64,000 nucleotides of DNA from Amoebophrya sp. A120 (Eukaryota; Protista; Dinoflagellata), in the NCBI GenBank assembly GCA_905178155.1, contig CAJINV010000013.1, positions 1,388,392-1,452,391 on the forward strand, read 5' to 3'. Both the position numbers and the translations under genes were made by a program. The notes under the pieces were generated by a model that did not search any database, was not told the DNA's origin, and was given only the letters and a program-made list of their open reading frames with translations. Below are positions 1 through 64,000 of the stretch, piece after piece; the first letter of the stretch is position 1; every line of letters begins with the position of its first letter.

Positions 1-3000
1 CGGGAAGCACCGCGATGCATTGGAGTGGTACTACAGCTTTTATGGTTTTATTTGCAGGTCTGTAGTACCTCACATTTTTTTCTCGTGCAGAAAAGAGTCG
101 GATTCATCGCTCCGGCGTCCAATTTGCATCGGAAGCAAGCCGTCCAGTCCGAAAAAAAACCTCCTCCAGGTCCCAACTTTTCTCCCCTACCACCGCGAAG
201 AAGCTTCTTTTCTGAAAGAGGGAGGTACCGCCCGCGAGCGGGAAAGGACGGCCGCACGGATTCGCGATTTCCGCAAGTCCCGCGGGTTGGACTCCCCCAG
301 TACCTCGGAGGACGACGGCGCGGCGTCCGTATCAAATGTAAAAATGTCTGGGTCTGGAAACTTGTAATGCTAAAAATGAATGCTAGACGCACTGCAATAC
401 GCAGCTACGCATGACAATTTTTTTGGCTACCAATGTCTTACGTATTCCGCATGGCAAACTGCGTTTTTGCATGACAGGCGAGGAGCACGCCGGTCAGCAA
501 ACGCGAGCGAGGAGCACGCCGGTAGCAAACAAAAGAACGGCGGAGCAGAAAACAACGCAGGAGAGACAGAGAGGATCGGGAGGCGACGCGAGTCGTCACC
601 AATCTGGAAGCCACCAGCGAAAAAACGAAAACCCGCCCACCTCTCGCAATTCTTCAACGTCGCGGACATGTTCGGACCACTAGGGACGGAACTTGGGGGC
701 AACATCTTCGGCGCAGCTCCACGAGGACAGGGAGAGACAGGAAGCAGCAGCTCCAGCAGCTCCTCACGACCGGCGCAGCCGAACACAGAAAACCCCCCCA
801 AGGCGAAGCAGCCCCCCCCTTAGCGGCAAACCCCCCTTACCCTCCCCCTTGGGCAGACATGCGGCAGTCGGCCAGCAGCACAAAAGGATAGCAGAAAAAG
901 CTACAGGGTCCCAGCGCGGCAGGGGCGCACAAACACACGAACACGGAGCCAGGAAAGCGAGGAGTAGCTCACACTAGAAGAAAAACAAGTCAACTTTTAC
1001 CAGAAAAGCAGCAGACTAGTCGTTTTCTTCTTTTTTTAAAAAAAATAGAAGGCTAAAAAAAAACTACTGCAGGAGTACAGGGAGCCAACAAGGCTCACTC
1101 GCCGGCAGAAGACGCGAAAGCTCACAGGAGAAGAGCAGTCGGGTGGGCTGTTCCGGCGGAGGGACAGAGAGAAAAAAAAGAAAGAGAAAAAATAGGAATG
1201 ACAAGATGGCGCGTAGACTGTACGTCCCCCCCTTTCCACAAACTTGGACCCCAAGTCCTCTTTGCACCGAACGCAACCAAAACGAAGCAGAACGAGAACG
1301 GAGGGAGGATTCGCGCCGGAGTTTTATTTTGCATGAAAACAAAAGAAAAACGGAAGAAGAAACCAAGCCCGCAAAACATATTCAAACCATGTGAGGCCAC
1401 CAGTGCGAAAACTTCTACGGAGTCTGTGCCTAACTTAGCCTGCGACCATGGTTGTGAATAGCCCCGAGGTTTTTCATATCCGGCAGCAGTCCGTCGAACA
1501 GTCCCCGTACCCCCAGAGTAGCCCCCCCAACTACTCGCCCGAGCCAATGATCCCACTCGTGCGTCGCACCAACATAGGATGGGCTCACTTTCTCGCTTCC
1601 AGGGAGTGCGAATTGGTAACTAACCGACATTGTGCCAAGAGGAGGGCCTCCCCGGGACCGCCTGGCGAAAGCCTGCCATGGGTTTCACTGTCCACGGGTG
1701 GTGTTGCGGGTAATCCTGACGAAAGCCAAAAACCGGCAGAAAATGGGGCCACGGAAGCGTTCTTGCTGGACATTGCCAACATTTGCCCATGCAGAGCCGT
1801 CCTCTTGCCGGACACAACCCACATCTGTCCGAAACAGCCTAGGGCCAAGACGACATCGTGAGGACGACCACAGGGGGTTCGTCTCAATGATGATGATGAT
1901 GACAGGCAAGAGGGCTTTTTCGTGCCTATGCAACACAGATTTTCGAGTCATGCCAGACAAGCATGACAAACTTGCATTCTTCCAGACCCAGACACTTTTG
2001 CACAGGATAGTCCGCGGCGGAGTCCGATTTGGCCGAGTTTGAGACCAATCTCGAAACGCGTATCACGCAGATCCGCGGGTGCATCGTGGCCGCGCGGAAT
2101 CTGTACAAGGACATCGTGGTGGGCGATGGAATCTCGATGGCGCCGCGCGTCGGCGACTTGAACCGCGAGGTCCCGGTGCCGCTGGGCATGACGCAGCAGC
2201 GCGCGGAGAAGCTCGCCCGTTCTGCGGAGTCGCGGTCGCGGCGGATGACGGGGTCGCTGTTTTCCAGCGGCCGCGCGGGGAAGACGGGCATGGACCCCTT
2301 CGAGTACATCACGAACCCCAACCCGTACGTGGTGATGCGCGGCATCGACTACGACACGACCGTGTTTGAACTTTGCCGCACGGAGCCGCTGCTGGAGACC
2401 AAAGCGCCGTGCTGGGACTTGGAGTTCAGCGTGACCATCCCGGAGCAACTGTCCAAACTCCGCGGGATCGAGTTCCACGTGTACGACTACAACGACTGGC
2501 TGACGAGTTCCCTCCCTCTCGGGTTGATCCCGTGGGACAAGGGGGACTACTCGCTCGGAAAATGGGTGGTGGATTTGCACTCGTTAAACCACGCACTGTC
2601 CCAGTCGGACGCGGAGCTGCGCGCCATGAAACACATGAACGAGCACAAGGGCCGGCTGATTTACCAGGCGGCGCTGGTCCGGCGGAAGATCCACTGCTTG
2701 AAGCACCGGCTGCACATCCAAACCGAGTACGAGTACCTCCGCCAGCGAATCACCGGTTTGTACGGCCTCCAGAACCTCTACGCCAACGTTTTCCCGAACA
2801 AACCTTTGCCAAAAACCATCACGGAATACGGGTTTGTCGAGCCCGCCACCCGGGAGGCGGTCGAGGACACGATTTTGGAGTGCCACGGGGAGAAGTCGAA
2901 GCGGAGAAGCTTCAAAAAGGGCGACGATGACGAGAACGTGAAGCCGCCGGTGATTGAACTGAACCCGGACATCGAACCGCCACCCGGCGCGCCCGTTCGG

Positions 3001-6000
3001 CATCCGGCGGTGATTCGGTTGCTGGAAAAAAGGGCGATCGAGGCGGAAAAATTGAGGCAGCAGAAGCTGGAGGAGTTAGCGCTTGCCGAAATCCGGATCG
3101 CGCAGATGGAAGCGGAAGAAAAGGAGCGGGCCCGGCAGCGGCAAATGCAGCTGGACGCCATTCAGGAGGAGGAGGAGACGACGCACACGAAAGAGGAGGT
3201 GAGCAGCCTGACGATGACGATGACGCAGCGGGAAGAGGAGGAGGAAGAGGACACCGCGACGTCGCTAACTTTGAAACGGGACCAGTCGAAAATGAACACA
3301 ACGCTGTCCACGTTGGTCAGCTATCAACTGCAAAAATGTCTGGGTCTGGAAGATTGCAACTTGTCATGCTGTTTTTGGACTCGAAAAAAGTTTGTATTGC
3401 ATGACCAGCAAGAGGGGTACAGTTTGTGCTACACGGATAGGGCATTTCTCATGCGAAGGTGCATCAGGAAGCCCTCTAAAAGTCTGCGATGCTAGGTCAT
3501 GCATTACAGGCATCATGGGTCATGAGAAATATGCATGACAAGTCTTGCATTCTTCCAGGCCCAGACATTTTTGCATTTGATATCAGCTCCGGCGGCAGTC
3601 TGGACGGAGTGAAAAATACCGCCGGCGGAGGTCCTGGTGCAAACGTTCCAGCTGCTGCCGCGCCGATCGCGGGGACTAATGGCGTGACCCCACCAGCACC
3701 AGCGGTTTTTATCAAGGAGGGGCAGCACGAAGCCGCCGCGGCTGCCGCGGCGAAGAAGAAGGCGCCGAAGATCCCGCTGGACGAGAAACAGCAGGCGATG
3801 CACGAGCTGAAGAAGTCCTTAACTTTGAACAGCTTGGTGGACCGGGTGAAGAAGGAGCGAAAAGAGACGAAAAAGCGCATCACCGGCGACGTCACCCTGC
3901 CGGCGTTCACGGTCGTTGTGTTCGGGGTGTTCAGCAACGGGGAGGAACGGGAACTGCACCGTTACCCGCTCGTGACGAGTTACAACGCTTTCGGCCTCTG
4001 CCCGGTCGACATGCTGGTGGGGAACAGTACGCTGCTGGGTCCGAACGGCGCCAGCTCGAACAAAATCAAGTACGCCTTGCGGTTGCCGACCACCCGCCCG
4101 CCACCCTCGGAGGTCGAGATGGATCTGGTCGCGACACTGGCGGAAATCCGCGCGAAAAGAAGTCCGGAGTCACCCGCGAACCGGCTGTTTGCAGATCAGC
4201 TGAATCGGTGTCGGCCGGTGGTCGGTGTGAAAGGCATTGCGCCGCTGCAGTCGGGTATGAAAAACGTGACGCAGGGCAGGTCGGTCGGTGCAAACTACGG
4301 GTTCACACCACTCGCCGAGTCCTTCGTGGTTCACGCGCCGGGGTTGAAGGGCACGGACGCGAAGGCGCACAAGGCGAAGATTGAAGCTGCCCGGCAGAAG
4401 ATGCTGGAGGCGAACATAAGCCAGTCGGATCACGTGAAGTCGACGACGAAGTTCAAAAAAGATCCGAGACGGGACGCTATGGCTCTTCTAGAAGATTTAC
4501 GCATTGCAAATATCGATCTCGTCTCTGGCGGTTCTGCCTGGAACAGTAGGTGCTGCTCTTTGTCCTGATGCAGCTTTTGCCTGCTCGCCTGAAAGTTCAA
4601 GTTGTGGAATGCATGGCGTGGTATCTTCACAGGTAGTCTTATGTTGAAAGCCTCTCAAGATCGGCCTATTCCGCATGCTGTCTGCGCGCGGCTACACAAG
4701 CACAGTTTTTGTTGTTCACGCGACCGCACAGATTTTTGTGTTACTGCCGGAGACAGAGCAGCAGCATCAAAAGTTTAATGCCTCTCTATTCATGCAACAG
4801 ACCACCGAGACGCATATTTGCAGTGCATACGATATGAAGAAGCAACGAGGCGGCGTGAAGTCGGAGGAGAAGGAGAAGAGACGGCGAAAAAGGGCAAAGC
4901 ACATCATCACCAGTCCCGGCGGAACTGCGGTTGCCGCCGGTGGAGATCATGGAGAGGGCAATACTAATTCGCCAGATAACAAATCCCCAGGCTCGCCCGG
5001 GACCACCGGCTCCAGCTTCTACACTTCCGACGAAGACAGCCAGAGCCGGGGCGGCCAATCCGGGGCCGGACACTCTACCGATGAGGACAAAGAAGAGCAG
5101 GAGGACGAGGAGGACTACCAAACGCAACTGTTTTCCGACAACATGTTGGAAAGGAAGGTGGAGCAAGCGCTCGGCAAAGTGGACAAGGAACTGCACCCTT
5201 TCGTCCTCCCCCGCTGGACCTACGACTTCAACCGCGACAACCCGTTCGCCCGGCAGAACTCGACGCTGTTGGCGGAGAGAACGTACGCGCGGAAGAACCA
5301 GATGGGCGAGGGCATGGTAGAGGATTTGCTGAACGAATCGCCGATTGACTTACTGTATCTACGGTTCCGCGTGTACGAGCCATCGAGTCAGCTGCGCACG
5401 TACGAGAAAAAAGTGAAGAAAGCCACGGACCGACGGCGCGCGCGGCGGCAGCGGGAGCTGGACGAGTGGCCGCTGTTCGTGGAAAAGATGCCGTACGACT
5501 TGCAGCAGCGCGCTGTAGACAACAAGTCCCAGTTCGTGCACGCCCGTGGTGGTTTCAAGCGGTTGGATGGGTTGTTCGCGAAGGAGGAGGTGAACGCGCT
5601 GGCCGCGGAGCGAAAGCGATTGCAGGAAGAAGCGGACGCCCGGGATTGGAAGGCGCAGTTGCGGATGAACCAGGCGAAGGCGAAGCAGAACGCAAGCAGC
5701 GGGAAATTTGCTGCGAAATGGATCAAAAAAACCGAGCAAGCAGGGGGGTTGGAAGCGCGGCGGAAAAAGAAGAAACTGGAGGAGGTACGAGTGGGGAGAA
5801 AAATTTGGGATTTGTTCCGATCAGTTGCACTTTGATAGCACACTTGCAGTACTTCGGCGTCCTTGTAGAGGAAGCTTATCGAGTGCCGAAGAAGTAGCAG
5901 TAGCTTGTGCTACATCATGTTTTGTTTGCATAGTACCAACAGAACCTGATAAAGTTAAAGAAGATAGCATGTGGGCTTTTCACTTCAGATAGTGAATGAA

Positions 6001-9000
6001 CTGCGTGACCGTGAGAAAAAATCGCAAATCGCAAAGTTTCTTTTCCATACCCCGAAGAAGAGGAGGAGGATGATGAGGACGAGGAGGTCGAGGTTGAAGA
6101 GGCAAAGCCGCCGACGCCCGACGATTCCGATATGGACGCCGCCATTGCCGCCGGCGATTTCCAAGCTGCCGGGAAGCAATCGAGGGAAGTGCGGAAGATG
6201 CTGTTGAAAGCGGAAAACGAGCGACGAAAAGCGGCGGGTCTGAAAGCGAAGAAGTCCCCCGAGCAGGAACGGCTGGAGGCGAAGCTGGCGAGGAGACAGG
6301 CGCGGGAGGAGAAGGAAGACGGGGAACGGAATCGGGAGAAGGAAATTTTAGAGCAATCCGCGAAATTGAACAAGCAGCTGACCACCGAGCGGGACAAGTT
6401 AGGGGACTTGTCCAGTCCAACGTTGACCATGGACGCGCAAATCGCCCTGGACGCCGCGGATTTCTCCTCCAGTGCTTCTTCAGGCGACAATCACGCGCGG
6501 ACGCAGGAGGACGGGCTGTTCACACCGGTGGAAGGCCAGCACTGCACCAGTTTCGTGAAGAAGAGAGGTGCATCTTCTACTGCGTTATCGAGTTCATCAT
6601 CGAGTTGTTCGTCGTCAGCCACTGCAGGAACAACAACCGGGAAGAAAGTTGCGAAAAGCGAGGAAAAAGCGCGGCGTGTTCCAAAACCTTCTTCAGTCGC
6701 GCCCTTCACAGCGTTTCTCAGGAAAGGTCGGTTTGGCGACATGTTTGAAGCATTGTCGAAGAAAACGGGACTCTTTGGTGCTGGTTCTGCTTCCAGTTCA
6801 AGCAGTAGTAGCAACAAGAAGCAGGAAGAAGAACTTCCTGAAGGCAGAAGTACAACCACATCTTCAAAGCCTCCCGCGAAGAAAGGCGCCCGATGTACAT
6901 CGAGTAGCAAAAGTGCCAGCAGTAGTAGCAGCAGCAGCGGAATACAAGTCCACTATTCCGCGGAGGCAAAGAGACGATTCCCTGGTTTGCGGCTCGATAT
7001 CAGACCGAAGAAAAAGAACCCGTCAGAGATGAAATCCCCCGAACAAGAAGAAGAAGAGCCGGAAAAAATAAACCCCCCTGCTAGTGCTAGAGACTACAAG
7101 CAGGAAACGACTAACGTGTCCAACTTTTTGCAAGAAGTCCTGGGCGATTTGATGTCGGAATGTTCCTCCCGCGCACCGTTAGAGCAGAACGAGGAAGAGG
7201 AGATCATTTTGCTGAGCTCGGAAGTGGACAAACCAGAGATTTGGTCCCGGAAAACGGAGAACTTCAAGCCGGCGCATGTTGTCGAGGATCCAAGAGACGG
7301 GTCGAGGATGATGGGCTCTTCTTCATCTAAAAATGGGGGAAGTAGCCGAGAAACTACGAGTTCTTCTTCCTCTTCTAGGCCGACCTTCACTCTGCCAGAC
7401 TCCTTCTCGCAAACGATGGACGCAAAAATTTACGGCGAAAGAGAAGGCGTTCAGGTGTCTGATCGTGACGAAGACTGTGAACAGGCTACAAGCGGCTCTG
7501 ATGAGGAAATGCCAGGGAGCATTGACGAAAAATCCTCGAGTAGTAGTGGTAGTAGTGGCACTTACAGCAATAGAAGAGGGTCCTCGTCTTCATCCCGTCA
7601 AGGACCGCGCCTCGTCCTGGATACCTTTACAAATCCCGCCACGGGCGAGAAAGTTCAACTCCCGCGAATAGACGAAGACGAGGGTGGTGCAGTCGACGCA
7701 GTAGAAATGCGAGACGAGGAGGACAACTACGCCGTCAACGAGCAGTTCTTCGAACAAAAAGATGTCGAAAACGACATTTCTGACGACGACGCGGCACTAT
7801 CGCTTTTCTCCCCTAGTAGAAGTAGAAGAATACAATCCGCTACATCAACTACCCGCCAAGATGAGGGTCTGCACCAGCTTCCCGACGCAGTAGATTCGAG
7901 CACTCCCGGAGGAGGACACAACCAGGACCACACCGAGCAACAGGGGGACGAAGAGGAGGAAGAGGAGTCCGAGCTCGGCGCTTTCAAGGACAGCAAAACG
8001 GCTGCGGAGCGGAAATTGAACGCTAAGTACCCGCAGCAGCCGAAGGACCCCCCGCCCTTTGTGAAGGATCCGGACCTGCCCATGGGGGGGCGGGAGGATA
8101 AGCGGTTGATCAACGCGGGCCGCACGGTGATGATGGACGAGTACGAGCGGGACGAGGATGTGTACCACGACCCGTTCCCTGCCGGTTCGATGGTTCGCGT
8201 CCCTCACGACCCCATGCACCAGCCGGACCGGCACTTGCCGGATGCCATGGTGAAGCAGAGGCAGCTGCTGATGCCGCAAATCGTGGAGGACGTGAAGGAG
8301 CGGGAACGGCGGGACTTGCTGGATTGGCAAAGGAAGCGGTACGCGTACCAAACGAAGACGGGGACAAAAGTAGATTTAATGATCGACCCGAATTTCCGCA
8401 CGACGGGGTTTGCCGCCGAAGATTGGAAGAAGAAGTCCGCGCGGATCTACGGGCCGCCGGAGGGAGATCACGATAAGGACGGGGACAAATGGTTTCGCGA
8501 CCAAATTGTGCAGGAGGACGAGGAGAAATCGCAGCAAATCAACTCCGTCTGGCAGGCGTATCACCCGGATGCGTCGTCCGACGAGGATGCAGAGGTGATG
8601 GACGAATTTCGGTTTGGTTCCGTCGGCCAGTTACTGGCCGAGGGGGTTTACTTTTTGAACTGCGCATCCTTGCACAAACCGGAGACCATCCAGGTCGACC
8701 TGTACCCCTCGCAGGCGATTCTTGACAAGCTGACCGAAGAAGCGACGGAAGCGCTGGGCGGGGTCGCGATCGACCACCCGGGGGGTGTGATGGGCTCGGA
8801 AGGTGGATCTTCGGGTAGCAGAAATCACAGCACGAACTCCCACGGGATCCCCCTCCCGAAGAAAAAGCGCATCCAGATGGCGAAATCGCGGTCGGTCGCT
8901 TTCGGCGGGCAGAAGCCGGTGTCGCGAATCACGCTGAAGGAACGGATCACAAAGGTTTTGAAATTCCCGATCGACTATGGGCGGGAGGGTCGGGAGCGCG

Positions 9001-12000
9001 ACGCGGGTCTGGCGAAAGCGCGGGTGCGGAAGGAGATGGCGGCGGTGGAACAAGTGTTCGGCGCTACACTGCCCGGGGAGTCCGCGCTGCGGGCGTTTAA
9101 GGAGAAGATGGACAAGAAACAGAAATCCTTCGAGGGCCGGGGCGGCACGGAAGCGAAGAAGGAGTTTTTTCCCGTTCGGTGGGCCATGGCCACGATGAAG
9201 AGCACCCGTATGATCCTGTTTTTCCAGTTGGAAGTCACGGGGAAGCGATACGTGCTGGACGACGACATCCGCCGGTACGTCCGGTCCCGGGATTTCAAGA
9301 AGAAGGTGGAGCAGACGAACCGGCTCCGCCGCATGAAGAAATTGAAGGAGTCCGGGCCCACCGCGCCGAAACAGGAGGGCGCGGACGAGAAGCCAGAGGA
9401 GGAGGAGAAGGGGAATCTGGACAAGCAGGCCGGCGAGGAGGAGGAGATGGAGCCGGAAGAGGAGTACAAGCCGGTCACGGAGATCAACCACATTTACGGG
9501 ATGATTGTGAAGGCGGGGAACGTGCAGACCGACGCCCGCGGGTTGATGGACCCCGCGGACGTGCACGAGTGGTACGAATCGCAGAAGAAAAACATTCTGG
9601 AAGTGACGAACAAGGAGAAGGCCAAACCGGTCCCGGTGAGCAAAATCAACGCCGAGATTCACGAAAAGATGCATCGACGGAGAAAGCTGTGGATAGGCCT
9701 TGGGGACAACCTGTTCCGCAAGCACAAGTCGTTTTTCCGCCGGAACCGCAAGTCGACGACCGTGTCGGCCACCGGCGTGGAGCAAGTGAGGGAGTACCCG
9801 GCGCCGCCACCCGTCACGAGAAAATTGCAACAAGCGCATCTGTACGTCGTCGCGACGGTGCTGGATGAGCAGAACCGGCCGTGGAAGAAATCGGTAATAA
9901 CCAGGATAAACCAAAGCTGCCCGGCGAATGCGCTGGGGCAGATGCCGATTTTCAACTCCGATTTTCTCTTCTCCTTCGGGGGCGAGGAAAGGGGCGACTT
10001 CGGGCTTCCGGAAAAGTTGGAATTCACGCTGTACCAGCGCGCGGACCTGCGGCTGAACCCGGAAGAGCTGGAGGCGGAACATCAGCGCAAGATGGAAGCG
10101 GGGGAGTTCGACCGGTCGTCGTTTTTACTTGACGGGGCGGGGGACTCGACGGAGGTAGGAGACGGCTCGTTTTTAGCCGGCGGCCCGTCGCAAGACACGG
10201 CGGATAACACGAACGGCGGCGACAGCCAGGATCTGCTTCTTCAAAAGTCGCAGCAACTCACGGAGGGTGCGCACAGCTCGCCCAGGAGTTTGCAGAGAAA
10301 GCGACCGGCCGCGGACAGTCGCTCGGACGCAGGGAGCAGTGGAACGGGGAGGAGTAGTGAGAGAAGCAGCCCGAGCAAGAGACAGAGAATTGCAGCCGGC
10401 GGTCCTGCGGTTGTTGATCAGAGCGTCACCTTGACAACCACTTCCACCCAGCAGACGAAGCGAGAGACGTCGAAAGCGATTGAATTCACCGGATCGATGT
10501 CCAAATCATCCTCCTCCAACAAGTTTTTGACCAACCGACAGCAGCGGGAGCAGGACGAGCGCCGCCGCACCGAGGGATCCGGCGCGGGCGTCTTGGGCAG
10601 GCGGCAAACGAACCACCGAGCGAAGAATCTGCAGCACTTGGCGGACCACAATGTTTTTGGGAAAACCAGGAGGAGCAGAAGGCCGCGGGAAATGTCGGAA
10701 AAATTCTGGAACAGCAAGTACGGGAGTAAGCTAGTCGCGCACGTAAACACGCTGTCGAAATCGGTCGCGTTTTCCTCGAACACCGGCGCAAACAATAACA
10801 AGCAAGACGCGCAGTTCTTCAGCACCTTGCTTCCCGGGGGACCCGGGCTGAATGACCAATCGAACAGTAATTTTCTGAACGATAACTCCACGGTTTTGAG
10901 CTCGATGTTCCGTTCGAAGGACCGGGTGAAGCCTTACGGGTTGGGGGTTCAGGAGCTGAACCAGGAACAAAAGGAGCCGTCGATTATCACGCTGGATCGG
11001 GTGGACGAGAACCACAGCTTCGAAGATTTTCCTTCAAAAATTTTCTCGGAAGCAGCGGCGTCCGAGCCGGTGCCGGTAATGCAACCGGGCGACATCGGCG
11101 GCGTTGGTATGTTCATTCGGGAGCAGCAAGGCGGGAGTTCCAGCAGCACCGCAAGTGGTCGCGGGGAAAGAAGAAGCGGGAGCGGCGGGAGTAATAGCAT
11201 CAGACCGGTGGAGGACGACGTCAATAAGAAGCAGTCGTGGTATTTTCCGGCCGGAAAATCGCCTTCGCCACCCAAAAGCTCCGCGAAGAAGAAGAAAAGT
11301 AAAAAAGGGACAAAAAAACAAAAAGGAACCAAATCCGGCTCGGACAGCAGCCCTGGGAAATTGAATCAAGACGGAGGAGGTGGGACAAGAAACACCACTA
11401 GTAACAACAAAACTGGTAAAAGTAGTAGCAGTCCCCAAAAGCACGGCTATGACGACGAAGACACGCCCTCGAAGCAGGGCACGCAGACGTCGTTCGAGCG
11501 GTCGCTCCGGAGTTGGCACAAACGCGTGCAGAAGTCGCAGCAGTTGGACAAGTACCGAGTAGATGCGGACGAGATGGCGGACGACGAACTGGAGCAGATG
11601 TCCGCGATGCTGAAGGCCGACCGGGAGGACAGGGAACGAGAACAACACTCCAACTCCCTGGTCGCCCCGGATTCGACCGGTTCCACGTGGCGCATTTCCA
11701 CCGCGGGCGGCGGAGTGCACACCAACACGCGGTCGAGCGTGATCGGCACGCCGGGCGTCCCGCCGGAGTTGAGTGAAGAGTCCAGCAGCAATGCCGACAT
11801 GTACAGCCGGGGGGATGAATTGTCGCGGCCGGCAAGCTCAAGGAACGGAGATAGGGAAGTAGACCAACACGATGGGGGCTACGGAAGTAGAACAAGAAAT
11901 GACCGAAATTATTTCCAAGAAGTCGCCGCGTCAGAAACCGTGTCCTTCATTTCCAGCAGCCACGCGCAGAACGCGAACACGAGGGAATCTACCCCGGCAC

Positions 12001-42411: not shown

Positions 42412-43319
42412 CCTCCTGTGAAGGCCGTCGCCTGAGGAGATCTCCCGGTCGTAACGTGGGGAGAAGCAGGCCGCATGCTTATCAGGGCAAGCGGTTAGTG
42501 GATCTGGTTGAAAGAGTGGCCCCAGTGAATGAGGGCCGCCGCCTCTCATGATGCCACCTCGTAGACCATATATACGCGCTGGCCTTGTTGTTCTACGGAG
42601 AGCTAGCAGCAAGCAGCTCCTTGGCCCATGCGCTTGCGCTGCTGCGCAGGTTCGCAACAAAAAGGCACGCCGCCGCTGTGCTGTTTGTTGCCTGCCACCC
42701 GGGTGCCGCGGCTGCGCCTCGCGCGTCCACGGGACGCGACGGGGCAGCAAGCCGCGCGGCACCACCGACGAGCGCAGCTGCGCTACCGTTAGGGGAGCGC
42801 AGCCACCCAGATGGCTGGCCACCCCACCCTCCCGGATGCCGCCCCTTATCCGAGCTCGGCCAAGCCCATACCGAGAATTATAGCGCCGACCGTTGATAGT
42901 GCGCGGCCACCCGGTTGGTCGGTACTATGAAGAGCGCGCCACGACAGGCGAGCCCTGTGGCACCACTGAAACGGCCACACAGCAACACATTGGCGGCGCA
43001 CAACCGCCCACGAGTTGAGCGCCCCCAGACATGCAAATGCTTGCTGTAGCTACGCAGTGCAATACCAAATCGGACGAAAATCAACGGCAGTCGTGGGGAG
43101 GTGTTGGTGTTCGTGAGGCACTACGTCCGACGCGCCTCCGAGCCGTGAGGGCACTCGGAAGGGTAGGAGAGAGGGACCGAAAGTGCACCTACTCCGGGTG
43201 CGGGAGATCCTGGCGAGACAGATCCCACATACAATGCACTGAGACCCATCCGTCCCCTTGTACGTGCGATGTTTGTGCACAGTGGTCGGCATCACCTGTG
43301 GCTTCGATAATAATAATAA
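42412..43319 (+). mobile_element. Non-autonomous SINE-like retroposon, family C copy 2
   Basis: 17-bp TSD TAGACCTGACTACGAAA at 42395-42411 and 43320-43336; (TAA)n tail; same 5' end CCTCCTGTGAAGGCCGTCG as copy 1. Confidence 0.9.
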
Positions 43320-43336
43320 TAGACCTGACTACGAAA

Positions 43337-49772: not shown

Positions 49773-50676
49773 TTTTGCTCCATCAATGCTAGAAGACGGA
49801 TCATATCGGCTTCATCTCCTGCTGCGTATTAAGCTGTCATTGATGTTGTGTCACCGTTAAGAGCCTGCAAGTGAATCAGAAGCATGGCAACAGTCAGTGA
49901 TAGTTATCGCAAAACTGTACTTAGGCTTTCCTCCGTCCCGTCGAACGCGAGTCGGCGCGTCGGGAAGCCCTGCAGCCGGACGTAGGCGTGGCACGACATT
50001 TTTAGCCTTCCTGAGTGCTAATCTTAACGCTACTAATGGGCGGGAACATTGAAAGAAATGGTAATGGATACCATGTTGGTCTATATCTATTTCGTCATAT
50101 GCATCTTGATCTTGTCGCTTTATTTTGGTATCGCTGCATTCATCATATTTATCAATGCGCGTGAAGCCTTAAGGTTCAACGGTAGTTGGGCGGTTGTCCT
50201 TTGTCATGATACATCTGCTCAGCCGTAGCTTTGACACAAAGGAAAAACCATTGGATCGCTTTGAAGCACGCCACGTCATCTTTATTCGATAGATCTCCGA
50301 GTTCTTGCTCCTACCAAGAAATAGATCCAAAATATCGCTGTGCAGATCCCATATCCTTGGAATTGGTGCTGCTCTCGGAGCCAAAAATACTATGAGATCG
50401 TCGACTACACAAATATCGCAATCCAATCTGTTTTTACAGAGCGTAAGGAAAGTGAGTATTTGGATCCGCTAAGCTAAAAATCACAGCGGTGAACACCAAC
50501 AGTGACGCTCACGCACGTCGGTGGTTTTTGAGCTGAAAGTGTCTCATCTTCGCGGCGGGAGCATAGGTAGTAATAAGTAGTAACGCACTAACCAGTTGGT
50601 ACACAAAATATTTCATTTTCAAGTTCGAAGAGGGTCTTTCTCGGTAGCATTTCTTTCCAGCTTCAAATTGTTCATC

Positions 50677-50718
50677 TATGGCGCGCGCAAAGTAACATTT
50701 TACTTTGCGCGCGCCATA
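50677..50718. mobile_element. 42-bp perfect hairpin mini-element with TAT...ATA ends and 5-bp TSD
   Basis: Arms TATGGCGCGCGCAAAGTAA / TTACTTTGCGCGCGCCATA (19 bp perfect, 4-nt loop). TCATC on both sides, at 50672-50676 and 50719-50723. Confidence 0.8.
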
Positions 50719-51442: not shown

Positions 51443-54400
51443 TTATTCCGCAATCGGTTGCAGCGGCACGGAATCATCCACGTCGACACTTTCCCGTTCC
51501 TCCCGGGAGGTTTCAATCTGCCGTTTCACCAGGTCCTTGTACTTTTCACAGCGCTCCATCAGCTCGTCGTGCGTTCCCTGCGCCACCAAGCGGTTCCGGT
51601 CCAGGAAGAAAATCTGGTCCGCCCGGCGGACCGTGGAGAGCCGGTGCGCCACGATCAGTGTGGTGGTTTTGTTCTTCGTCGGACTTATTCCACCATTTTT
51701 GCCGTCGTCCGGCGTGTGCTGCACCAGTTGGTCGATGGCCTTCTGCACCAGGGCTTCTGACTCCGCGTCCAACGCGGAAGTTGCTTCGTCCAGCAGCAAG
51801 ATGTTTGGATTTGACATCAGCGCCCGGGCAATCGCGATCCGCTGCTTCTGCCCGCCGGACAGCCGGACGCCGCGTTCGCCGACCAGGGTGTCGTAGCCTT
51901 CCGGAAACTGCATGATGAAGTCGTGCGCGAACGCCAGTTTCGCGCACCGCATCACTTCCTGTTTCAATTTCTCTTCCGAGAGTTGCTTTTCTTCTTCCGA
52001 AACTTCTTCCCGCTTCAGCGTTTTCCCGTTTTCCTTGTTGTACAGGACGAATTTGTTGTGGAGCTCCTGCGCCCGGGACCCGTACGCGATGTTTTCCAGA
52101 ATCGACACCCCAAACAACACCGGCTCCTGCTGGACCCAGGCGAAGTTTTTGCGCAGGCTGGCGTGGTCGTAGTCCTGCACGTTCTTGCCCTCGAGGAGAA
52201 TCTGCCCGCCGGAACAGTCGTAGAACCGCTGGATCAGGTTGATGATCGTGGACTTCCCGCCCCCGGAGTGGCCGACGAAGGCGACCGTCTGGTAGCGCGG
52301 AATTTGGAAGGTCACCCGCTTCAACACGCGGATATCCGGTCGCGCCGGGTAGCAGAAGGACACATTTTGGAACTCCACGATCATGTTTGATGGCGGCTTG
52401 CTGCTCTGTGTCGTTGAAGGTTCAAGATCAGCAGTACTATTTTGCATCATGCGCGCGCCATTATCCACCACGACCTCAATCTCCCCAGACACAGTGGTGC
52501 TGCTGTTGCCGTTTTCCAACTCTAAATCGTGGTTCGGCGGGGCAACAACCGGGACGATCATTTTGTGATCCACATTTGCGGATGCAGGTGTTGTAGTTGT
52601 GTTGGTCATCAAAGCTGGATCTGTGGATGAATATTGTTGCGATTTGTCGTTGTTCGCGAAGACTATATGATTGTGATCTTCCATAACCGGTGCGTAGTAA
52701 AAGGCCTTGTCCTCCACGGTGACCAGAATTTTCGGCTTCCGGTCGATCAACTGGAAGGTCCTCTTTGCCGCACCCAGAGCCTGGTACAGAATCGCGATCA
52801 AGTGGACCAACAGAGAGATCGACCCGCCGACTTGGACCGCGTACACCAAAAACGCGATCAATTCGCCCGGTGTCATCCGCCCGTCCAGAACCAAATGTGC
52901 GCCGTACCAGATGACCAAATTGGTCACTCCGTAGCCGAGGACGGAGACAACCGCGATGAACCCGGCGTTCAGCATCTGCTTCAGAATCGCGAACCGGTAG
53001 ACCGTTTTTGACTTTCGGGGCGGGAACCAGCAGCAGCCCGTCTCGTTGTTGGGCAGGCAACAACCGCAGTAGTTGTCGGGGTCGAGGGTGGTCGGTAAGA
53101 CCCCCTGGGTCGCGTTCGGGTCGTCCTCCTCCAAAGGTGCCTCGCCCGCCCGGACAAGCGGCCCAACCAGTTGATTTTGGTCGCGGTTTGACGAGCTCCG
53201 CAGACTCTCTTTGGACGCAGAATTGGTACGCGCGCCAGGAGATGATCCCCCTGCCACTGCAGTAGCGGTCAAAATGCTGGACTCCTTGCTGACCACGTTC
53301 TGCATTTCGATCGTCGTGTGTCCGTTCCTCTGCGGATCCTTGTCCAAAAGCCGCTGTTTCTCGCTTTGCGAATCGTTTTTATCCGAGTCGTCGAATTTTT
53401 GGCACTCGCCCATCGCGTCGGGGTCGCCCAGGGTCCGGCGAAACCGCAGCACCTCCAGCTTCTCGGCCGCGAAACTGCGCATGGTGCGCACGTTCGAAAT
53501 CGCTTCCTGCGCGGTGTTGCTGGACTCGCCCAGCGCGTCGGTCGCCAGGGTCGACACTTTTTGCACGCGCCAGCCGTACCAAGTTAACGCCAAACCGACG
53601 AAGGGAACCACGCAGAAGGCGAGCACGGACAGGCGCCACGAAACCAGCACCATCATCACCGCGGATAAAGCGAGCTCGATGATCCCCCGGAGAAACATGG
53701 ACAAGTTACTCGTCGAAACGTCCTGCAGCGAGGTGCAGTCGCTGGTCAACCGCGACATCAATTCGCCCGTTTTTCTCTCGTCAAACATGGCCACCTCTTG
53801 GCACACGATCGCGGAGAACAGTTTGAAGCGCAGCCTGGCCACTACCCGCTCCCCCGCCGCATTGAAAATGAAGGACCGGACCATGGTTGCGACCGCACCG
53901 ATGGTCAGGAGAATCATTAACTGCGCCGCCAGCGTGTTCACGTCTTCCCGTTTCGTTTGGTCCGGCTTCGTGGTAGACTGACCGGTGGCGGAGTCGTCTC
54001 TTGTGATCATGATTTCGTTATCAAATGTAAAAGTGTCTGGGTCTGGAAGATTCTGAGATTTGCCATGCATGTTTTGCATGACCCAGTATGTCTGGAATGC
54101 ACGACCGCGCATCACAGATTTTGAGCGGGCTTCCTGATGCCTACTCCGCATGACAAACGCTCTCCCCGCGTAGCACAAACTAGACTCCTCTTCCTTGCTG
54201 GTCATGCAATACAGATTTTTCTAGAGTCCAAAGAAAGTTAGCATCACAAGTTCCAATCTGCCAGACCCAGAAATTTTTACATTTGATACTCGTCCATCAA
54301 CTTTCCAAACATCAGGGGAAGGAGCAGCGGTGGGAGCAGGGAGATGATCAGAAACACCATCCCGATGGACAACCACACCCACTCGGGCTTCGCCAAGTCG

Positions 54401-54591
54401 ACGATGCGCCACAGACTGGGGGCCTTGTCCTGCTCATTTTGCTGGGCAGGTGAAACGGAAGGCTTGGAGGGTGTCATCTCTGCGACGGCCAAAGTACCAG
54501 CAGGCTCCTTCACGGACAGGCTTTTTTCTTGCGCAGTAACGATCTTATCGGGAGCGCCAGGAGATGGCTCGTCTGACATTGTGGCTGTCAT
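51443..54591 (-). CDS. ABCB-family half transporter (ABCB10/TAP-like)
   Basis: TM domain (AGERVVARLR, TGELMSRLTSD), Walker A GHSGGGKST, signature LSGGQKQRIAIARA, Walker B LLLDEATSALD and H-loop IVAHRLSTV. Exon 1 (54591-54289, LWRIVDLAKPEW...FGKLMDE) joins IMITRDD after removal of element 54019-54288. Confidence 0.93.
54019..54288. mobile_element. Introner-like TIR element, family A copy 4 (270 bp) in the ABCB gene
   Basis: TATCAAATGTAAAAGTGTCTGGGTCTGGAA ... CTGCCAGACCCAGAAATTTTTACATTTGATA. TSD TTCGT (54014-54018) / CTCGT (54289-54293); the mismatch is synonymous (GAA/GAG). Confidence 0.93.
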
Positions 54592-56074: not shown

Positions 56075-56283
56075 TATCCAAGAAAAAAACTGTGTTAGTG
56101 TAAGTCTTTTGGGAAAACAGCATCACAAGTTCGTCTGCCTTGACAGGAAAAACTTGTCATGCACAGATAGTAAGGGAAAACACATAGGAATGGAGCCGAT
56201 CATGCATGTCGAGCATGACAAGTATAACTGTTTTGCATTTTCTGCATCACAGATTTACACTTACACAGTTTTTTTCTTGGATA
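56075..56283. mobile_element. 209-bp TIR element (family D) with TAT...ATA ends and 5-bp TSD
   Basis: TATCCAAGAAAAAAACTGTGTTAGTGTAAGTCT / AGATTTACACTTACACAGTTTTTTTCTTGGATA. TSD GCAGG at 56070-56074 and 56284-56288. Carries the same GCATSACA / TGTCATGC internal motifs as family A. Confidence 0.9.
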
Positions 56284-56587: not shown

Positions 56588-57467
56588 CTACAGCTTCGGA
56601 TTGTACGAACCTCGGTACCATCCGGAATCAAACCCACGGCTCTTCTCCTCGTACTTCATAGCCGGATCTTGAAACGCGGAAGGACCCCGGTCCATCCAGT
56701 CTGAGGTAGGATTTTTTTTGGCGACAATTGGCTTCGATTCCCCTTGGTAGTAATAGGGCGCTGGACCTCATTCTAAATTTTTTTGCGATCGTAATCAGGG
56801 AATTATCGAAACAGAAAACGACAAATCGTAGATTTTGTATACGTACTTACCTTCCGCGAAGCCACGCTCCACGTTTGTCGTCTCCATCTTTTTCAGTGCG
56901 GTCCCCGCTTTCGTTCCCTGCTGCATGGTATGCACTGCAAACATGTCTGGGTCTCGAGAGAGAATAAAGTTGAAGTTATGCTTATGACGCAAACGCAATT
57001 CAGCTAATAATGAGCGGACTGTAACTACTGCACCGCCAAGCATGCCAGGTTTTGGCATGATCTTCGCTCTGCGTATCGTATTGACGAGACGAAGCTTCGT
57101 TTGCGGATGACAGACAAGAGGAATGCTACGTGGCAATGCAATACAGAACTCAGAGTCATCGTCATCGTCATTCCAGACGAGCATGACAAATCCCGCGATC
57201 TTCCAGAATCACACATATTTGCGATGCATACATCATCGGATCAGCGGCGGAAGAACGGTACCACCCGGACTGGAAGCCACGCTCCTCTGGCGTGGTCATG
57301 TTACGGTTCAATTTTGCGGACGTCAACCCGTCCGCGCCTTGCCCTAATTTTTTCTTCGATGTCGCCGTTCCCAGTGCCTGCGGATACCCATCGCCGGCAC
57401 CTGCCTTTTTCGACTTGGTCATCGAAGCGTCCGGCTTTCGCTCCTCTGCACAACAAACGGCGCCCAT
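56588..57467 (-). CDS. Small (140 aa) predicted N-acylated protein with three RGFxxxW repeats
   Basis: Exons 57467-57231, 56923-56851 and 56700-56588. The first intron is element 56929-57230 plus one TSD; the second is GTAAGT...CTCAG (56701-56850). N-terminus MGAVCC. Repeats ERGFQSGWYRSS, ERGFAEDWMDRG and SRGFDSGWYRGS fall in three different exons in one frame. Confidence 0.8.
56929..57230. mobile_element. Degenerate introner-like TIR element, family A copy 6 (302 bp)
   Basis: TATGCACTGCAAACATGTCTGGGTCTCGA ... TTCCAGAATCACACATATTTGCGATGCATA. Decayed TSD CATGG / CATCA. Removal gives in-frame ADPMM-QQGTKAG on the - strand. Confidence 0.8.
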
Positions 57468-58830: not shown

Positions 58831-61055
58831 CTAGATTCCCAGAGGTTTTGCCTCAGCCACCTCGGCCTCGATGTCCTCACCGGCCTCCAAGGCCTGCTCC
58901 CACTTGATGACCTGTGCGACGCCCTCAATGAACAGGTTGCAGAGCTGCACCTCGGACATCCCCAGCCTATCGGCGTTGCTGATATCCCAGGTACCCCCGG
59001 TGGATGCGGAGTCTACGCCGGCGGTGCCGCGGGCCTGGAGCTTCATCTTCTTCAGGATGTCCTTGAAGTCCGGGCGGGCGGAGAAGAGCGGGAGCTTCAC
59101 CATGGTGCCCGCGCGGAGTCCGGTGCCGAGGTTGGACGGGCAGGTGAGGATGTATCCCAGATGGTCACTGTGCATGAAGTCGTACCCTTCGGACTTCAGG
59201 CACTCCTGCACCGCCTTGGTCGCGTTGGCAAACCGCGTGAAGATGGCGTGGATGTTGTCACCTGGTAGTAGTAGTTGTTATACACAGTCATCGAAAAGTA
59301 GATATCATACGATAATACTTTCGTCTCGTTTTCTTTCTCGAGCTGGAATCGATTCAATATCAAAAAGAAAAGAGCTGCATACCTTTCTCCATGGACACAA
59401 TGCGCAGCTGATCCTCCTCGTTGACCCAGACGAAGAAGTTCTCCGCGTCGTTGTGGAAGATGCCCCGGGCGTCCGGCCAGTGGCGGCCGCAGCCGGAGGA
59501 GAGCAGCAGGGTGGAATCCGGCTCCTGGAACAGGTTGCCCGCGTTACGCAGGTGCTCTTCCTTCTCCGCGGACATACCAAAGATCCCCTGGTCGTCCATC
59601 GACTTGGACCCGTTCAGCGGGAAGTACTGACCCTTCAGCTCTCCCTCCATCTTCATCAGGCCCTTGACGCAGACGCGCTCGGTCTCGCGACGCTCCTCAA
59701 AGGTGCACGCGGGTGGGAGGGGGAGACCGCGGACGGAACGACCGGTGCGGCACCGGGTGGTCAGGCCTGAGGGTTCGTTTGCGCGCTTTGATTTATGGGT
59801 AGAAAGTTTCAGTTAGTTAAGTTTGTCGAGCAGTGTATGCAAACGAACCAAAGATGAATAACTGCTGGCAAAGGTGTAACGAAATGATGATGAGTGTGAT
59901 CATACATAGTCATACACATCAACAATCTAAAAGTAGTTCTCTCATACAGTAGTTTCCCGTCGGGTCGATCTTCGTCGTGGAGAGTTCGTCGATGTTCATG
60001 TTTGTCGTGTGCACTGCGTCGGCCGGGTAGTCGCCGTTCCTCTTGCCAATGACGATGTCGAACAGGTCCTTGAACGTGGTGAAGCAGTCCTCATCTCCTG
60101 CCACCAGCCCGCAGGTGAGAATGTGCGGGTGTCCCGGGTTGTCGATGCCGGTCTTGATGCACTTGGCGAGCGACACCCCGCCCGGGGTGGTCACGTTCTT
60201 GTACTTTTCGTAGATTTCCGGGTGGTCGCGCAGCGCCAGCGCGCACAGGTTGCCGTGGTTGGACAGGTCGGGCAGCTGGTCCGGGCACTTGTCCCCCGGG
60301 AAGGTCGCGCCCTTCTCCTCGCAGTAGTACTCCTTGTCGCCGCACCCCAGCTTGATCCAGTCCGGGAGAGTCTGCACGTTCAGGGCCAGGCCGTACGGCG
60401 GATAATTCGGGTCCTTGACCAATCCCTCGTCACTCAAGTGCTTCGAGAAGTGCTGGAGCAGCTTCTTGTCCAGGCCCGCCTTGAACTGCTCCTTCGTAAT
60501 CTTTCCCGACTCGTCCACGTTCATCTTACTGAAGATCTGCTCCGTCTCGTCCGCCGTCATGCCCATGTCCCCGAAGATCTTCTTCATCTCCTCCATGTCC
60601 AAGTCTCCCGAATGGTCCTGGTCGATCTGCGCAAACACCTTCTCGGCGTTCACCAAAGGGCGGAACCCCTCGATGCGGTTCTTGTTGTTCAGCTTCGCCT
60701 CGATCGCGTGTTGCAGCTCCGGAAACATGTTGCCCTTCCACTTCGCTTCCGACACCGAGGCGCCGCCCTCCGGGTCGAGTTTGTCCATGAACTCCTGCGC
60801 CTTCTCCTTGTTCAGCCCGAGCGCGGCCAGCGCGCGACGGAGCTCCTTCTTGTCAATCTCGTTGCTGTTGTTCGTGTCCAGCTGCTTGAAGACCGACGCG
60901 AGGAACACCGCGGGGTCCCGACCGGACGCGGTCATCTTCGCAGCTGCCGCGGGGGCTGCAGCTGCTTTTGGGGCGGGGGCGGACGCGGCGGCGGCCGGGA
61001 CGGCGCCGGGACCGCTGGCGGTCGCGCCTTGGGCTGTACTGGCTCCGCAACCCAT
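58831..61055 (-). CDS. Phosphagen kinase (creatine-kinase-like) fused to N-terminal EF-hands, with myristoylation/palmitoylation motif
   Basis: MGCGAS start; EF-hand loops DTNNSNEIDKKE, DQDHSGDLDMEE and NVDESGKITKEQ; kinase motifs TGIDNPGHP, WVNEEDQLRI, CPSNLGTGLRA and DISNADRLG. Exons 61055-59948, 59766-59383 and 59261-58831 with GT-AG introns in phase. Confidence 0.92.
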
Positions 61056-62130
61056 TTGTTTATTTTCTTATGCTTTCAACTTTTGGACGACTGTCGAGTT
61101 GTTTATAGAATTGGGGAAAAATAAATCCCGGGTGTGAAGAACGAAGATTTTTTTGATTATTTTACGGGTGCTCCGGCTGGGGTTACCTGGACTGAAATGG
61201 TTTCTCTACTTTCTTGCATAATGTAATGCGGTGGAGTGGACGTCGTGAGAAAGTAAAGTCACAAGCGGTACGATGACGATACGAAAAACTGGTGCAACGT
61301 ACGGCGGAGAAAGACAGAACGGACCGATGATTCTATTCTTTTCAGATTAGACGTAGAGTCACTTTTCCGTGCAGCTATGCCTCCTGCGTGAAAGCAAGTA
61401 AAAAGCAACTGGCTGTGTAGGATTTCCACAAAAAACCGAGTCGGTCTTTAGCATGAAAAAAAGGTCAAAATTGTGTTTCAAACCGAATTCTGCGAGGTAG
61501 CACCAAAAAAAGTGAAACCGACTTGCGACTTCTCGGTACAAAGGTAGGAGTTGGGAAAAAAGACCGTGACCGGACGCCGAGTGCCTCACGCTTTCTGTCC
61601 GACAAATGGCAAAAATAAAAGACCGAGGAATATTACGGACGAGTTTCTGACGGACAACAAGTGCGGTTCTGTTGTTTGTTTAGAGTCTCACGGTTACTGG
61701 ACCGACAAGTCAGGGGAAAACTACAGGAGAAAGATATGCAGTAGCAGTGTTTCCTCGTCTGCTTCCTTTCCCTTAACGGGAGGTAAGTTGTAGTAACTAA
61801 TGGCGCACTTTATTAAGAAGCTGTGGTGTCAATTCCTTTTGCAGGAGGTGGCAAGCAGAGTGAATGAATGTAAGTACTTATCAAGTTTTGGCTTCGCGTT
61901 TTGCGTGTCATATCATCAAGATCAACAATCAGACCAACCATTTCATAGATATCATACATGCGTGCAGCTCCTGGCTTACTTTCGGTGTGTATTCAAGCTT
62001 CGTGTCAATGCATAATACACGTGAAAGAAAAACGGCGTCGCTCACTAGGTACAGTGGGTTAGCTCTTTCGAGCGAAAGCGAAACAAAAGTCGTAGTGTAC
62101 GGAAACAAAGAATACTAAGCGCCACTAAAA

Positions 62131-64000
62131 TCAGAAGAAAGAGCGGAGAAGTCCTCCTGGTGATCTCCTTTTGATTTGATAAGATGCATTACTTGCGGGT
62201 TCCACCTCAATATCACTGTCGACAGCAGAAGGAGTAATCTTGTTTTCAAGGTCCTCGCTCTGCACCATTCCGTCTTTCCCACGCGCCATCTCTATTGCCC
62301 CTGCCTCCGCATCGTGAACTCTTTCGTCCTTGTGGTTCCACAAGCAAAAGAAGACAAGAAGCAAAACGCCAATCCCGATAATGCTACCCATTATCGCCCC
62401 GACGACCAGCGAAGCAGGGGACTCCGTGGTCTCCTTTGCCTCCTGCACTCCACCTGCTGCGCTCGCCACGACCGTGGTGGTTGATGTACTTGTTGGCACG
62501 GTCAAACTGAAGACTGTCGTCGTGAAGTTGTGTGAGGCCAATGACGTCCCCGCAACGGCCGTGGTGATACTGGACGTCACGGCTGCGGCGATAGAGGCGG
62601 TGGATAAGGTCGCTGAAGATATTATCCCGCTAGTTGTACCAGAGGTCGACGGCGCAGCTGCTGCTGCAAGAACCGGGCGTGATTTTGCCAGCGTCGGTAG
62701 AGGAAATTTCAAACTGCGCGCTCACCGGGACGACGGCTGCCAGATTTCTACGATTGTTCCGCTGCCGAAGGGGTCTCGTAGCCAAGAGCCCCGACCAGGA
62801 CATTGTCATCGACGTACTTACCCCGTTTTCGCCGGCGGTTGATTTGCAATTAGCCAGACTCGAAAACGGCTTCAATGTGCCCATGACGGGTCTATGGATT
62901 GTAAAAATGTCTGGGTATGGAAGAGTTCATGTTTGTCATGCTTGTCTGGCATGACTCTTAAATCTGTCACGCACGTTACCCAAGAGCTCCGTTTTTCTGT
63001 GATGCAGAAGCGCAGTTTGTCATGCAGAATAGGCAACACCTAGGAACTCAGATAGTTGTCATGCTGGGCCAGCATCTGTAGCCTCATCATGCGACGCCAC
63101 CCAGCATCACAAGTTTCCAGACCCAGACATTTTTACAGTTGATAGGGTCCGCAGAAGGATTCGTGGAGGGCAGTGGAAATGGCGGTCTTCACCATCGTCT
63201 TCTCCCCGGGCGTCATACTCGGGGGAAGCTCAATCGACAGGGCAACTTCCGTCGTGTGCTTCGTCACTGTTTGTGGTTCTCGGTCTGATTCTTGTTGATC
63301 TGCGGTAGTGTCTTTACCGGTTGTAGTAGTGGTGGAGGTGGCAGTGGCTGTCGCTGTGCTGGTGTCATCACCCGTGGAATAATCCGATGAAGTCCTTTCC
63401 GATATTACCGGCTCCGCCGGAGTTGTGGTGGTCGGGGTCGTAGTGACGGAGAAAGAAGAACTACCTGGCGAAGGCGACGGTGTCAGCGTCAGATTTGCAC
63501 TTCTCGGACTCAGGCTTGTTGCATTGGGGGCCCGTGTTGGCTCTGTTGGCGAAGGCATGGGAGTTCTTGCTGCACCAGCAAGCACTACACTTTTCTTCAC
63601 CACCGTCGCACGCAAACCTTTCTCAGTAGTCGCGTAGAACTGCAGGAAAAAGCCCTCGGGGAGAAAGTTCGTCGCGAAGCCGAGCAGAAAGGTCGCCCAG
63701 TCTACGCTCGTGGGCCGCGTGTCTTTCCAGGTGTTCAGTTCCGGATGGGGCGAACACCAGCCGGGCGAGTACGCCGGCAGCCCGCCGAGCGTTTCCCCGC
63801 CGTAGTAACAGGTCTTGGTCTGCCATAAATCCAGCAGTTGGGTGTTGATGCCGTCGCGGTAGGTCGTCGTGTTGTGGTTGGGGGTGCCGGGGTCGTTATT
63901 GGTTTTGTCGAACTCGTGCACTATGCGGTCGGCCGCCTCCGCGGCCGTCAGGTACCCGCCCATGATGGGCAGGCTGAACCACAAGTGTGGGTTTTTGTTG
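62131..64000 (-). CDS. Single-pass membrane protein with T/S/P-rich mucin-like stalks (5'-partial)
   Basis: ORF 63133-63984 joins ORF 62630-62884 in frame after removal of element 62893-63144 (ESFCGP-VMGTLK). A 1-nt slip near 62675-62677 leads into ORF 62131-62712, which has TM LVVGAIMGSIIGIGVLLLVFFCLW. Confidence 0.65.
62893..63144. mobile_element. Introner-like TIR element, family A copy 5 (252 bp)
   Basis: TATGGATTGTAAAAATGTCTGGGTATGGAA ... TTCCAGACCCAGACATTTTTACAGTTGATA. TSD GGGTC at 62888-62892 and 63145-63149. Confidence 0.95.

Follow-up and report, generated by a model that had tools for sequence, protein, structure and literature searches.

How can genes be read through when repeated elements that carry stops or shift the frame lie inside their exons? 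A 64,000-nucleotide (nt) stretch of the Amoebophrya sp. A120 genome (assembly GCA_905178155.1, contig CAJINV010000013.1, positions 1,388,392 to 1,452,391 of the forward strand), which we call the window and number from its first letter, raises this question at six sites. An initial annotation, made from the letters alone, described six related elements with terminal inverted repeats (TIRs) and 5-base-pair (bp) target site duplications (TSDs) and proposed that they are removed precisely. Our reading, which we hold with good confidence, is that they are introner elements of the A120 type, likely removed from pre-mRNA, each along with a single duplication copy, by a process predicted to read their own ends and not GT-AG. 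It is supported directly by the anatomy of the elements, their exonic position, empty sites in orthologs, insertion in either orientation, the lack of a target preference for GT or AG, and gene models equal to precise removal. The observation is real, ordinary for this organism, and published in kind.

Elements of one anatomy interrupt coding sequence

A 20-nt TIR core matched the window 12 times at up to 4 mismatches. All of these matches lie at the ends of the six annotated elements, 330 to 2009, 3322 to 3582, 38703 to 38966, 54019 to 54288, 56929 to 57230, and 62893 to 63144, and nowhere else, and all six elements have TAT…ATA termini. The 5-bp duplication reported for them is perfect in four (330, GTCCG; 3322, TCAGC; 38703, GAGGA; and 62893), agrees at 4/5 bases at 54019, where the difference is synonymous, and at 3/5 at 56929. 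The elements at 3322 (261 bp), 38703 (264 bp), and 54019 (270 bp) are 77 to 81% alike over their full length. The nearest relatives of the window elements, among the matches listed from the scan described below, are 69 to 95% alike. An Rfam search of the window returned no families.

All six elements interrupt coding sequence and would bring a stop or a frameshift if kept, as had been claimed: the length of the element plus 5 nt is divisible by 3 in none of them, and a stop is met 9 to 262 nt inside. Deleting the element and one TSD restores the frame at 6/6 sites, joining 109 and 493 open codons at 330, 437 and 326 at 3322, 166 and 858 at 54019, 123 and 44 at 56929, and 283 and 87 at 62893. 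At 38703, with the canonical intron at 38423 to 38592 taken out, the same deletion leaves 1,460 open codons, and other offsets give 17 to 64 stops. This restoration is expected of any TSD insertion. Because deleting an insertion with one TSD rebuilds the allele that preceded it, what frame restoration demonstrates is an insertion into an exon and not its removal. Removal is argued from two deposited gene models, the transcriptome sequencing (RNA-seq) of PMC7789003, and the integrity of the host genes.

The annotation also held that no register within the TSDs allows a precise GT-AG excision. This stands for all six elements and extends to GC-AG: neither pair occurs in registers 0 to 5. At 330, where the TSD has G at its first and last base and for that reason, an imprecise GT-AG intron could be used without loss of frame, at the cost of one extra codon.

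Three of the elements are on the plus strand (330, 3322, and 38703) and three on the minus strand (54019, 56929, and 62893). Those at 330 and 3322 lie in a giant gene; the site at 330 is documented by its TIRs, its TSD, and ortholog alignment, and at 3322 the ortholog alignment is gappy and gives no test of precision. The element at 38703 is in a long gene without a Pfam match, and the 252-bp element at 62893 is in a Thr/Ser-rich gene that runs past the window edge; at both, the evidence is the reading frame. The element at 54019 interrupts an ABCB half-transporter. That at 56929, 302 bp long and decayed, is in a gene for 140 amino acids (aa), which contains a GT-type intron as well.

Two parts of the earlier description changed. 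The stretch from 330 to 2009 had been taken as one related element, which is right for its ends and TSD and wrong for its full length: the 1,680-bp copy is a 252-bp element, 93 to 95% like copies in the loci described below, with a nested 1,428-bp insert (471 to 1898) bearing a (TGA)n tail and flanked by a duplication of its own. This insert lies between two copies of ATGACAGGC, has no Pfam match, and is probably retroposon-like. The family of six stands as six, and a scan that did not use the TIR core added four elements with other end families and the same anatomy. Two of these share the giant gene with 330 and 3322, on the plus strand: an older TAC…ATA element at 4498 to 4829 with a TSD matching at 3/5 bases, and a TAT…ATA element at 13318 to 15046 with a TSD matching at 4/5, whose removal joins 2,434 and 708 open codons. 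A 42-bp palindromic TAT…ATA element (50677 to 50718; TSD, TCATC, 5/5) lies at an apparently noncoding site. The last, a 209-bp TAT…ATA element (56075 to 56283; TSD, GCAGG, 5/5), is the sole element with a precise GT-AG register, on the plus strand, and a coding context for it was not found.

The element at 13318 contains an inner inverted repeat from 13488 to 14882, TAGGCCGA…TCGGCCTA, which has no Pfam match. It probably represents an element from a different class nested there, perhaps with a duplicated TA. A 38-nt direct repeat (35/38 identical) at 13280 to 13317 and 15047 to 15084 borders the 13318 element, and the ortholog from strain AT5 has a single copy of the corresponding 11-aa unit. 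Either a tandem duplication was later struck by a 5-bp insertion, or a long duplication is tied to the insertion; both removals are in frame.

Deposited proteins correspond to precise removal

A search with the exon of the ABCB gene (minus strand, 51443 to 54581, the upper coordinate being approximate) returned the 957-aa protein P0001, labeled Amoebophrya sp. A120, at 100% identity. P0001 equals the window gene minus the element at 54019 and minus one duplication, which holds for registers 0 to 5 only, and it contains letter for letter the junction KLMDE-IMITR that the annotation had predicted. The search with the small gene at 56929 returned P0122, also labeled A120 and also equal to precise removal of the element plus 5 nt. 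Since the two TSD copies at this site differ at bases 1 and 2, the protein reports the cut position: P0122 reads DPMMQQ, so that at least the first two TSD bases come from the upstream copy and registers 0 and 1 are excluded. Translation of a nearby GC-AG option rules that out as well. P0123, from another record, keeps the element at the equivalent site with a slightly different TIR. The annotation had left removal at the RNA level and at the DNA level side by side; the latter is unsupported here.

The empty sites that were to be looked for in relatives exist at the protein level at three positions. At 54019 the ABCB orthologs P0002 (from a transcriptome; it reads FGALMDEIMV) and P0003 (strain A25) are uninterrupted. 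The giant gene has orthologs P0121, P0126, and P0127 (4,661 aa, A25), of which P0121 and P0127 align across 330, P0127 without a gap, and also across 4498, where P0121 reads LLDDLKK. At 13318 the orthologs align on the downstream side only.

The giant gene (92 to 17177, plus strand) has no assigned function and lies partly in the window. Removal of its four elements and one other intron (5785 to 6050, ends assumed) leaves 4,265 open codons. There are no stops in these 12,795 coding nt, across four insertions of which one is nested and two have decayed duplications, where 10 would be expected at an assumed neutral drift of 2% and 26 at one of 5%; the model assumes the ends of the 5785 to 6050 intron, for which several choices keep the frame. 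That intron has a GT donor and a pyrimidine tract ending in AC in frame, with GT-AG alternatives at least 12 bases downstream; it may be of GT-AC type and have no relation to the TIR elements. Overall, the host genes remain intact, with no other lesions even near decayed elements.

The geometry recurs in copies beyond the window

We scanned metagenome contigs with the TIR pattern and obtained at least 157 stretches, stored as 151 loci (L001 to L151, 585 kb); the 74 listed share one contig prefix. The results in this section are for the matches listed. These loci, a second assembly, contained at least 170 distinct paired copies, mostly 240 to 312 bp, with 37 unpaired ends left aside. TAT…ATA ends were present in 151/170 copies and a perfect 5-bp duplication in 140/170, and duplication lengths of 2 to 4 and 6 to 10 bp matched at chance level. 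The anatomy that had suggested a MITE (miniature inverted-repeat transposable element) thus holds in at least 170 further copies. A generic scan for TAT…ATA ends with a perfect 5-bp duplication found 241 elements in the 585 kb and none in one shuffle; 111 of them were additional elements from other families, which have little in common beyond TAT and a run of A's. The TIR pattern had no matches in viral contigs.

Coding context was assessed with a codon-model phase test and a random control. These replaced a longest-open-frame test that was weak (removal of element plus 5 nt was the sole winner in 50/116 cases). Among 153 copies of this family whose TSDs match at 4/5 bases or more, the flanks were long enough in 124, and 55 of those scored as coding on both sides; the flanks were in phase for removal of element plus 5 nt at 50 of these 55. 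Among the other TAT…ATA elements, 124 gave 111 with flank and 44 coding sites, of which 38 were in phase. Random pseudo-elements fell evenly into the three phases (22/19/18; 59/600 passed). With respect to the gene, 29 strict coding sites comprised 13 forward, 7 reverse, and 9 unassigned elements.

A precise GT-AG intron was possible at 6/88 coding sites versus 3.8% expected (P = 0.12). The TSD ended in G at 27/88 and began with G at 21/88, where 30.6% was expected for each, and an in-frame GT-AG intron adding one codon was possible at ∼8% of sites, 330 included. Thus, the targets show no enrichment for a donated GT or AG, and co-option is at chance. Coding insertions did favor one phase, that in which a codon occupies TSD positions 2 to 4 (66/34/29 of 129, P = 8.5 × 10⁻⁵; control, 96/103/99). 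Target composition alone predicts 42% for the favored phase and may explain part of this bias.

The ends look conserved as motifs beside an inner stem

In the 153 copies, TIR positions 1 to 3 are TAT and positions 11 to 13 are AAA in at least 98% of arms. Positions 1 to 3 and most of 8 to 30 are nearly invariant, and positions 4, 5, and 7 are variable. At positions 10 and 14 the two arms agree modestly more often than expected. Folds predicted for seven short window elements have the ends paired in each case, and the pairing is firmest along the inner stem. With regard to the proposal that the terminal stem is recognized, pairing of the very end is not what is conserved: positions 4 to 7 of the two arms vary independently. 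The ends look as if they are read as sequence motifs beside the inner stem. To judge from their sequence, the terminal bases look conserved as a binding sequence, for which a transposase alone could account; the removal machinery may use the same bases.

Variants of positions 4 to 7 (CAAA, CAAC, CAAG, GGAT, and GCAT) recur on either arm independently, some of them in other families, a pattern that hints at ends being exchanged or at a spacer prone to mutation. Inspection also disposed of an internal GT or GC at TIR position 9 paired with an AG close to the 3′ end: position 7 is variable, and a cut there would break the frame.

Long copies and the source of mobility

The longest copies in the window and among the matches listed are 1,104 to 1,729 bp, and several have nested inserts. 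As candidates for autonomous transposons they were rejected, the copy at 330 being a nested insertion and none of the 41 open reading frames (ORFs) in seven long copies matching Pfam. No transposase family appeared among 26 other ORFs of the window; the claim that the window has no transposase agrees with these searches, which covered part of the window's ORFs.

Duplications of 5 bp are a common product of long terminal repeat (LTR)-type integrases. This makes an element of the kind of A120 introner family 38 a candidate lead for the mobilizer. That family is described as having TIRs and ORFs of Copia/Gypsy-like type (PMC12130899).

How the elements may be removed

Random targets, both orientations, and families that share only TAT and the A-run suggest that the removal pathway reads the ends of the element and cuts at fixed offsets. 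In the scheme that we propose, the elements would have spread as nonautonomous DNA transposons that depend on an enzyme acting in trans with a 5-bp staggered cut. The inner TIR stem (positions 8 to 30) would bring the ends together, and a dedicated factor would bind the TAT…(A)AAA ends. Cuts would then fall at fixed distances with offsets totaling 5 nt, the 5′ cut 0 to 3 nt before TAT. If the elements are indeed spliced out, we give an even chance to cutting and rejoining by protein endonuclease and ligase, independent of the standard spliceosome, a route that we favor over a re-targeted spliceosome. The whole picture, a genome-wide nonspliceosomal cut-and-join system that renders one transposon class harmless, is tentative and falls a little short of even.

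Several points weigh against this account. The present data do not separate an endonuclease-ligase from a re-targeted spliceosome. The RNA evidence is second-hand here, consisting of gene models and PMC7789003, both apparently based on complementary DNA (cDNA). Deposited A120 models test removal at two of the six sites, leaving four without; protein searches for the giant gene returned orthologs only and no A120 model, so that removal of both 1.7-kb copies lacks documentation. The neutral drift values behind the stops expected in the giant gene are assumed, not measured. Positions 4 to 7 are the same on both arms in 41/153 copies versus 43.6 expected, and without covariation there, selection on the terminal stem is not demonstrated; the excess at positions 10 and 14 may reflect only subfamilies. 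A long transposase-encoding copy with the same ends, which the annotation had suggested seeking, did not turn up in the window or among the matches listed in 585 kb of loci, and PMC7789003 reports no transposase in A120. Finally, a hairpin with a direct repeat is a classic substrate of reverse transcriptase (RT) template switching, which gives the same cDNA (PMC4176328); a word search with limited spellings found no mention of RT template switching in the main text of PMC7789003.

The strongest alternative is that the elements are true introns cut by the major spliceosome, re-targeted through an end-binding protein that replaces U1 and the dinucleotide rule. The outcome would be the same by other chemistry. 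A120 has 83/89 spliceosomal proteins and U2, U4, U5, and U6, with U1 not found (PMC7789003), GT-AG introns occur in the same genes, and the ∼8% of sites that permit a codon-adding GT-AG intron, such as 330, fit as well. However, GT- or AG-donating targets are not selected, both orientations work, and the families share little past TAT and the A-run, with no evident common branch point (no formal search was made). We consider this alternative rather unlikely, if clearly a serious one.

A second alternative is that the junctions are RT skips across the hairpin, the elements staying in the mRNA while the ribosome hops between the TSD copies; if the junctions were artifacts, the host genes would need such another bypass. 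The template-switch substrate noted above is what this alternative calls for. Five nucleotides is, moreover, the shortest duplication that always holds one complete in-frame codon, the phase bias centers that codon in the duplication, and its amino acid is kept in 4/4 mismatched duplications of the window. Yet in the loci the amino acid is kept in 17/22 mismatched duplications, and ordinary splicing would predict 14.2 (P = 0.15). Models of hopping, sliding, and fixed cuts lie less than 4 log-likelihood units apart and change rank with the parameters. Part of the phase bias, as said, is predicted by target composition. The first stop, 9 to 262 nt into the element, gives no common stall, and the known cases of translational bypassing span ∼50 nt versus 250 to 1,700 nt here. 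Altogether, hopping seems very improbable. Codon sparing had looked like a strong signal at first (13/14); it was dropped when it faded once further sites were added and a suitable null was applied.

Excision from DNA in an expressed stage, like that of ciliate internal eliminated sequences, we regard as no less improbable. Precise loss of the element with one duplication is the product generally expected of homology-guided repair, and the ends begin with TA, but both assemblies hold the elements at high density, P0123 keeps one at an orthologous site, and we know of no germline/soma nuclear split in the Amoebophrya lineage. That these are ordinary gene-killing MITE insertions, with pseudogene hosts and artifactual junctions, is scarcely credible: frame restoration is automatic for any TSD-flanked insertion, RT artifacts could still play a part, and a deposited model covers only 2/6 sites, but the hosts have no further lesions even around decayed elements, and the 29,850 such elements in A120 (PMC7789003) are too many for every host to be dead.

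Other features of the window

The window contains a fusion of an ATP:guanido phosphotransferase with N-terminal EF-hands (58835 to 61067, minus strand), which has GT-AG-type introns. It also contains a CmcI-type methyltransferase (23381 to 24706), a gene with a Cys-loop channel ligand-binding domain (27167 to 31694), and SDE2 (47970 to 49811). Two 0.9-kb inserts resembling short interspersed nuclear elements (29964 to 30898 and ∼42394 to 43338) are 95% identical, have (TAA)n tails and 15- to 18-bp duplications, and are unlike the TIR elements; the first apparently lies inside a GT-AG intron of a ligand-gated ion channel gene, and the second is intergenic. The region from 43400 to 45000 is AT rich (32 to 41% GC) and has no long ORFs, and several GC-rich blocks at 18260 to 21500 resemble related repeats by eye. 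At 62700 to 62822, on the minus strand, there is a GTAAGT donor; beside the pyrimidine tract an in-phase AG is not evident.

Implications

The fixed geometry defines a few substrates on which removal can be tested. They have TAT…ATA ends and exactly 5 bases in excess, may lie in any target and in either orientation, and, where the duplication is mismatched, report the cut position. The RT-artifact check matters because the published evidence appears to be cDNA based. If our reading is true, clean removal from mRNA of inserts bounded by TAT…ATA would give alveolates a second way of removing introns, a parallel to Euglena. It would explain how the genome tolerates ∼30,000 exonic insertions, and it might offer a tool for scarless conditional inserts.

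Relation to known systems

In translational bypassing, as in T4 gene 60 and the mitochondrial byps elements, matching codons flank a hairpin; those elements are much shorter than the ones described here and have a stall signal after the take-off codon. In common with nonautonomous TIR DNA transposons, or MITEs, the window elements have TIRs, a TSD of fixed length, and no coding capacity.

The nonconventional introns of euglenids are excised as circles without a lariat. They likewise have paired ends, frequent direct repeats, no GT-AG, and a proposed MITE origin, and their removal factors are probably nonspliceosomal (PMC12501133). The Euglena code N3CDG…CH′GN5-6|R is not present here (consensus inspected, registers 2 to 5), and the lineage is another one, so that the likeness is convergent at most. 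The introners of Aureococcus and Micromonas are also TIR elements with TSDs that became introns upon insertion, but they have canonical splice motifs (PMC7789003), whereas elements of the window type lack them and are not selected for them (6/88 versus 3.8%).

Within A120, 58 introner families have been described, many of them TIR DNA elements of 150 to 320 bp with mostly noncanonical ends (PMC12130899; 32 of the 58 family rows). Automatic labels in that paper have families co-opting or carrying splice sites, with TSDs of 2 to 6 bp; the elements studied here have a 5-bp TSD, and their co-option does not exceed chance. Its family 3, with 26% GT and 26% AG, would come close to the frequencies given by random letters of the target next to TAT…ATA. 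Chance-level co-option, both orientations, the absence of terminal covariation, and the phase bias were not found in the literature passages seen, by searches not aimed at these points, and we do not claim that they are unpublished.

The closest comparison is with the A120 introner elements of PMC7789003. That study found 66,565 introns with RNA-seq support in A120, more than 60% of them noncanonical, with U1 undetected, and canonical introns in strains AT5 and Kv. Its introner elements have an inverted repeat of TAT, seven variable bases, and AAA, a mean length of 240 nt, direct repeats of 3 to 5 nt (a 5-bp example is in the legend of its Fig. S19), noncanonical ends, and no internal transposase; their removal mechanism was left open. 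The window elements are alike in the TAT-plus-seven-plus-AAA repeat, the 3- to 5-nt direct repeat, membership in a repeated family, and noncanonical ends, and the matching proteins carry the same organism label. We see no difference in kind, and the elements annotated in the window belong to that very class in that very organism, as their likeness to Amoebophrya introners had suggested. Since the sequence features that define A120 introner elements are all present, the finding is already known. Relative to the passages of PMC7789003 consulted, the geometry here is tighter: 5 bp abutting TAT…ATA, a TIR of ∼30 nt, random targets, and both orientations.

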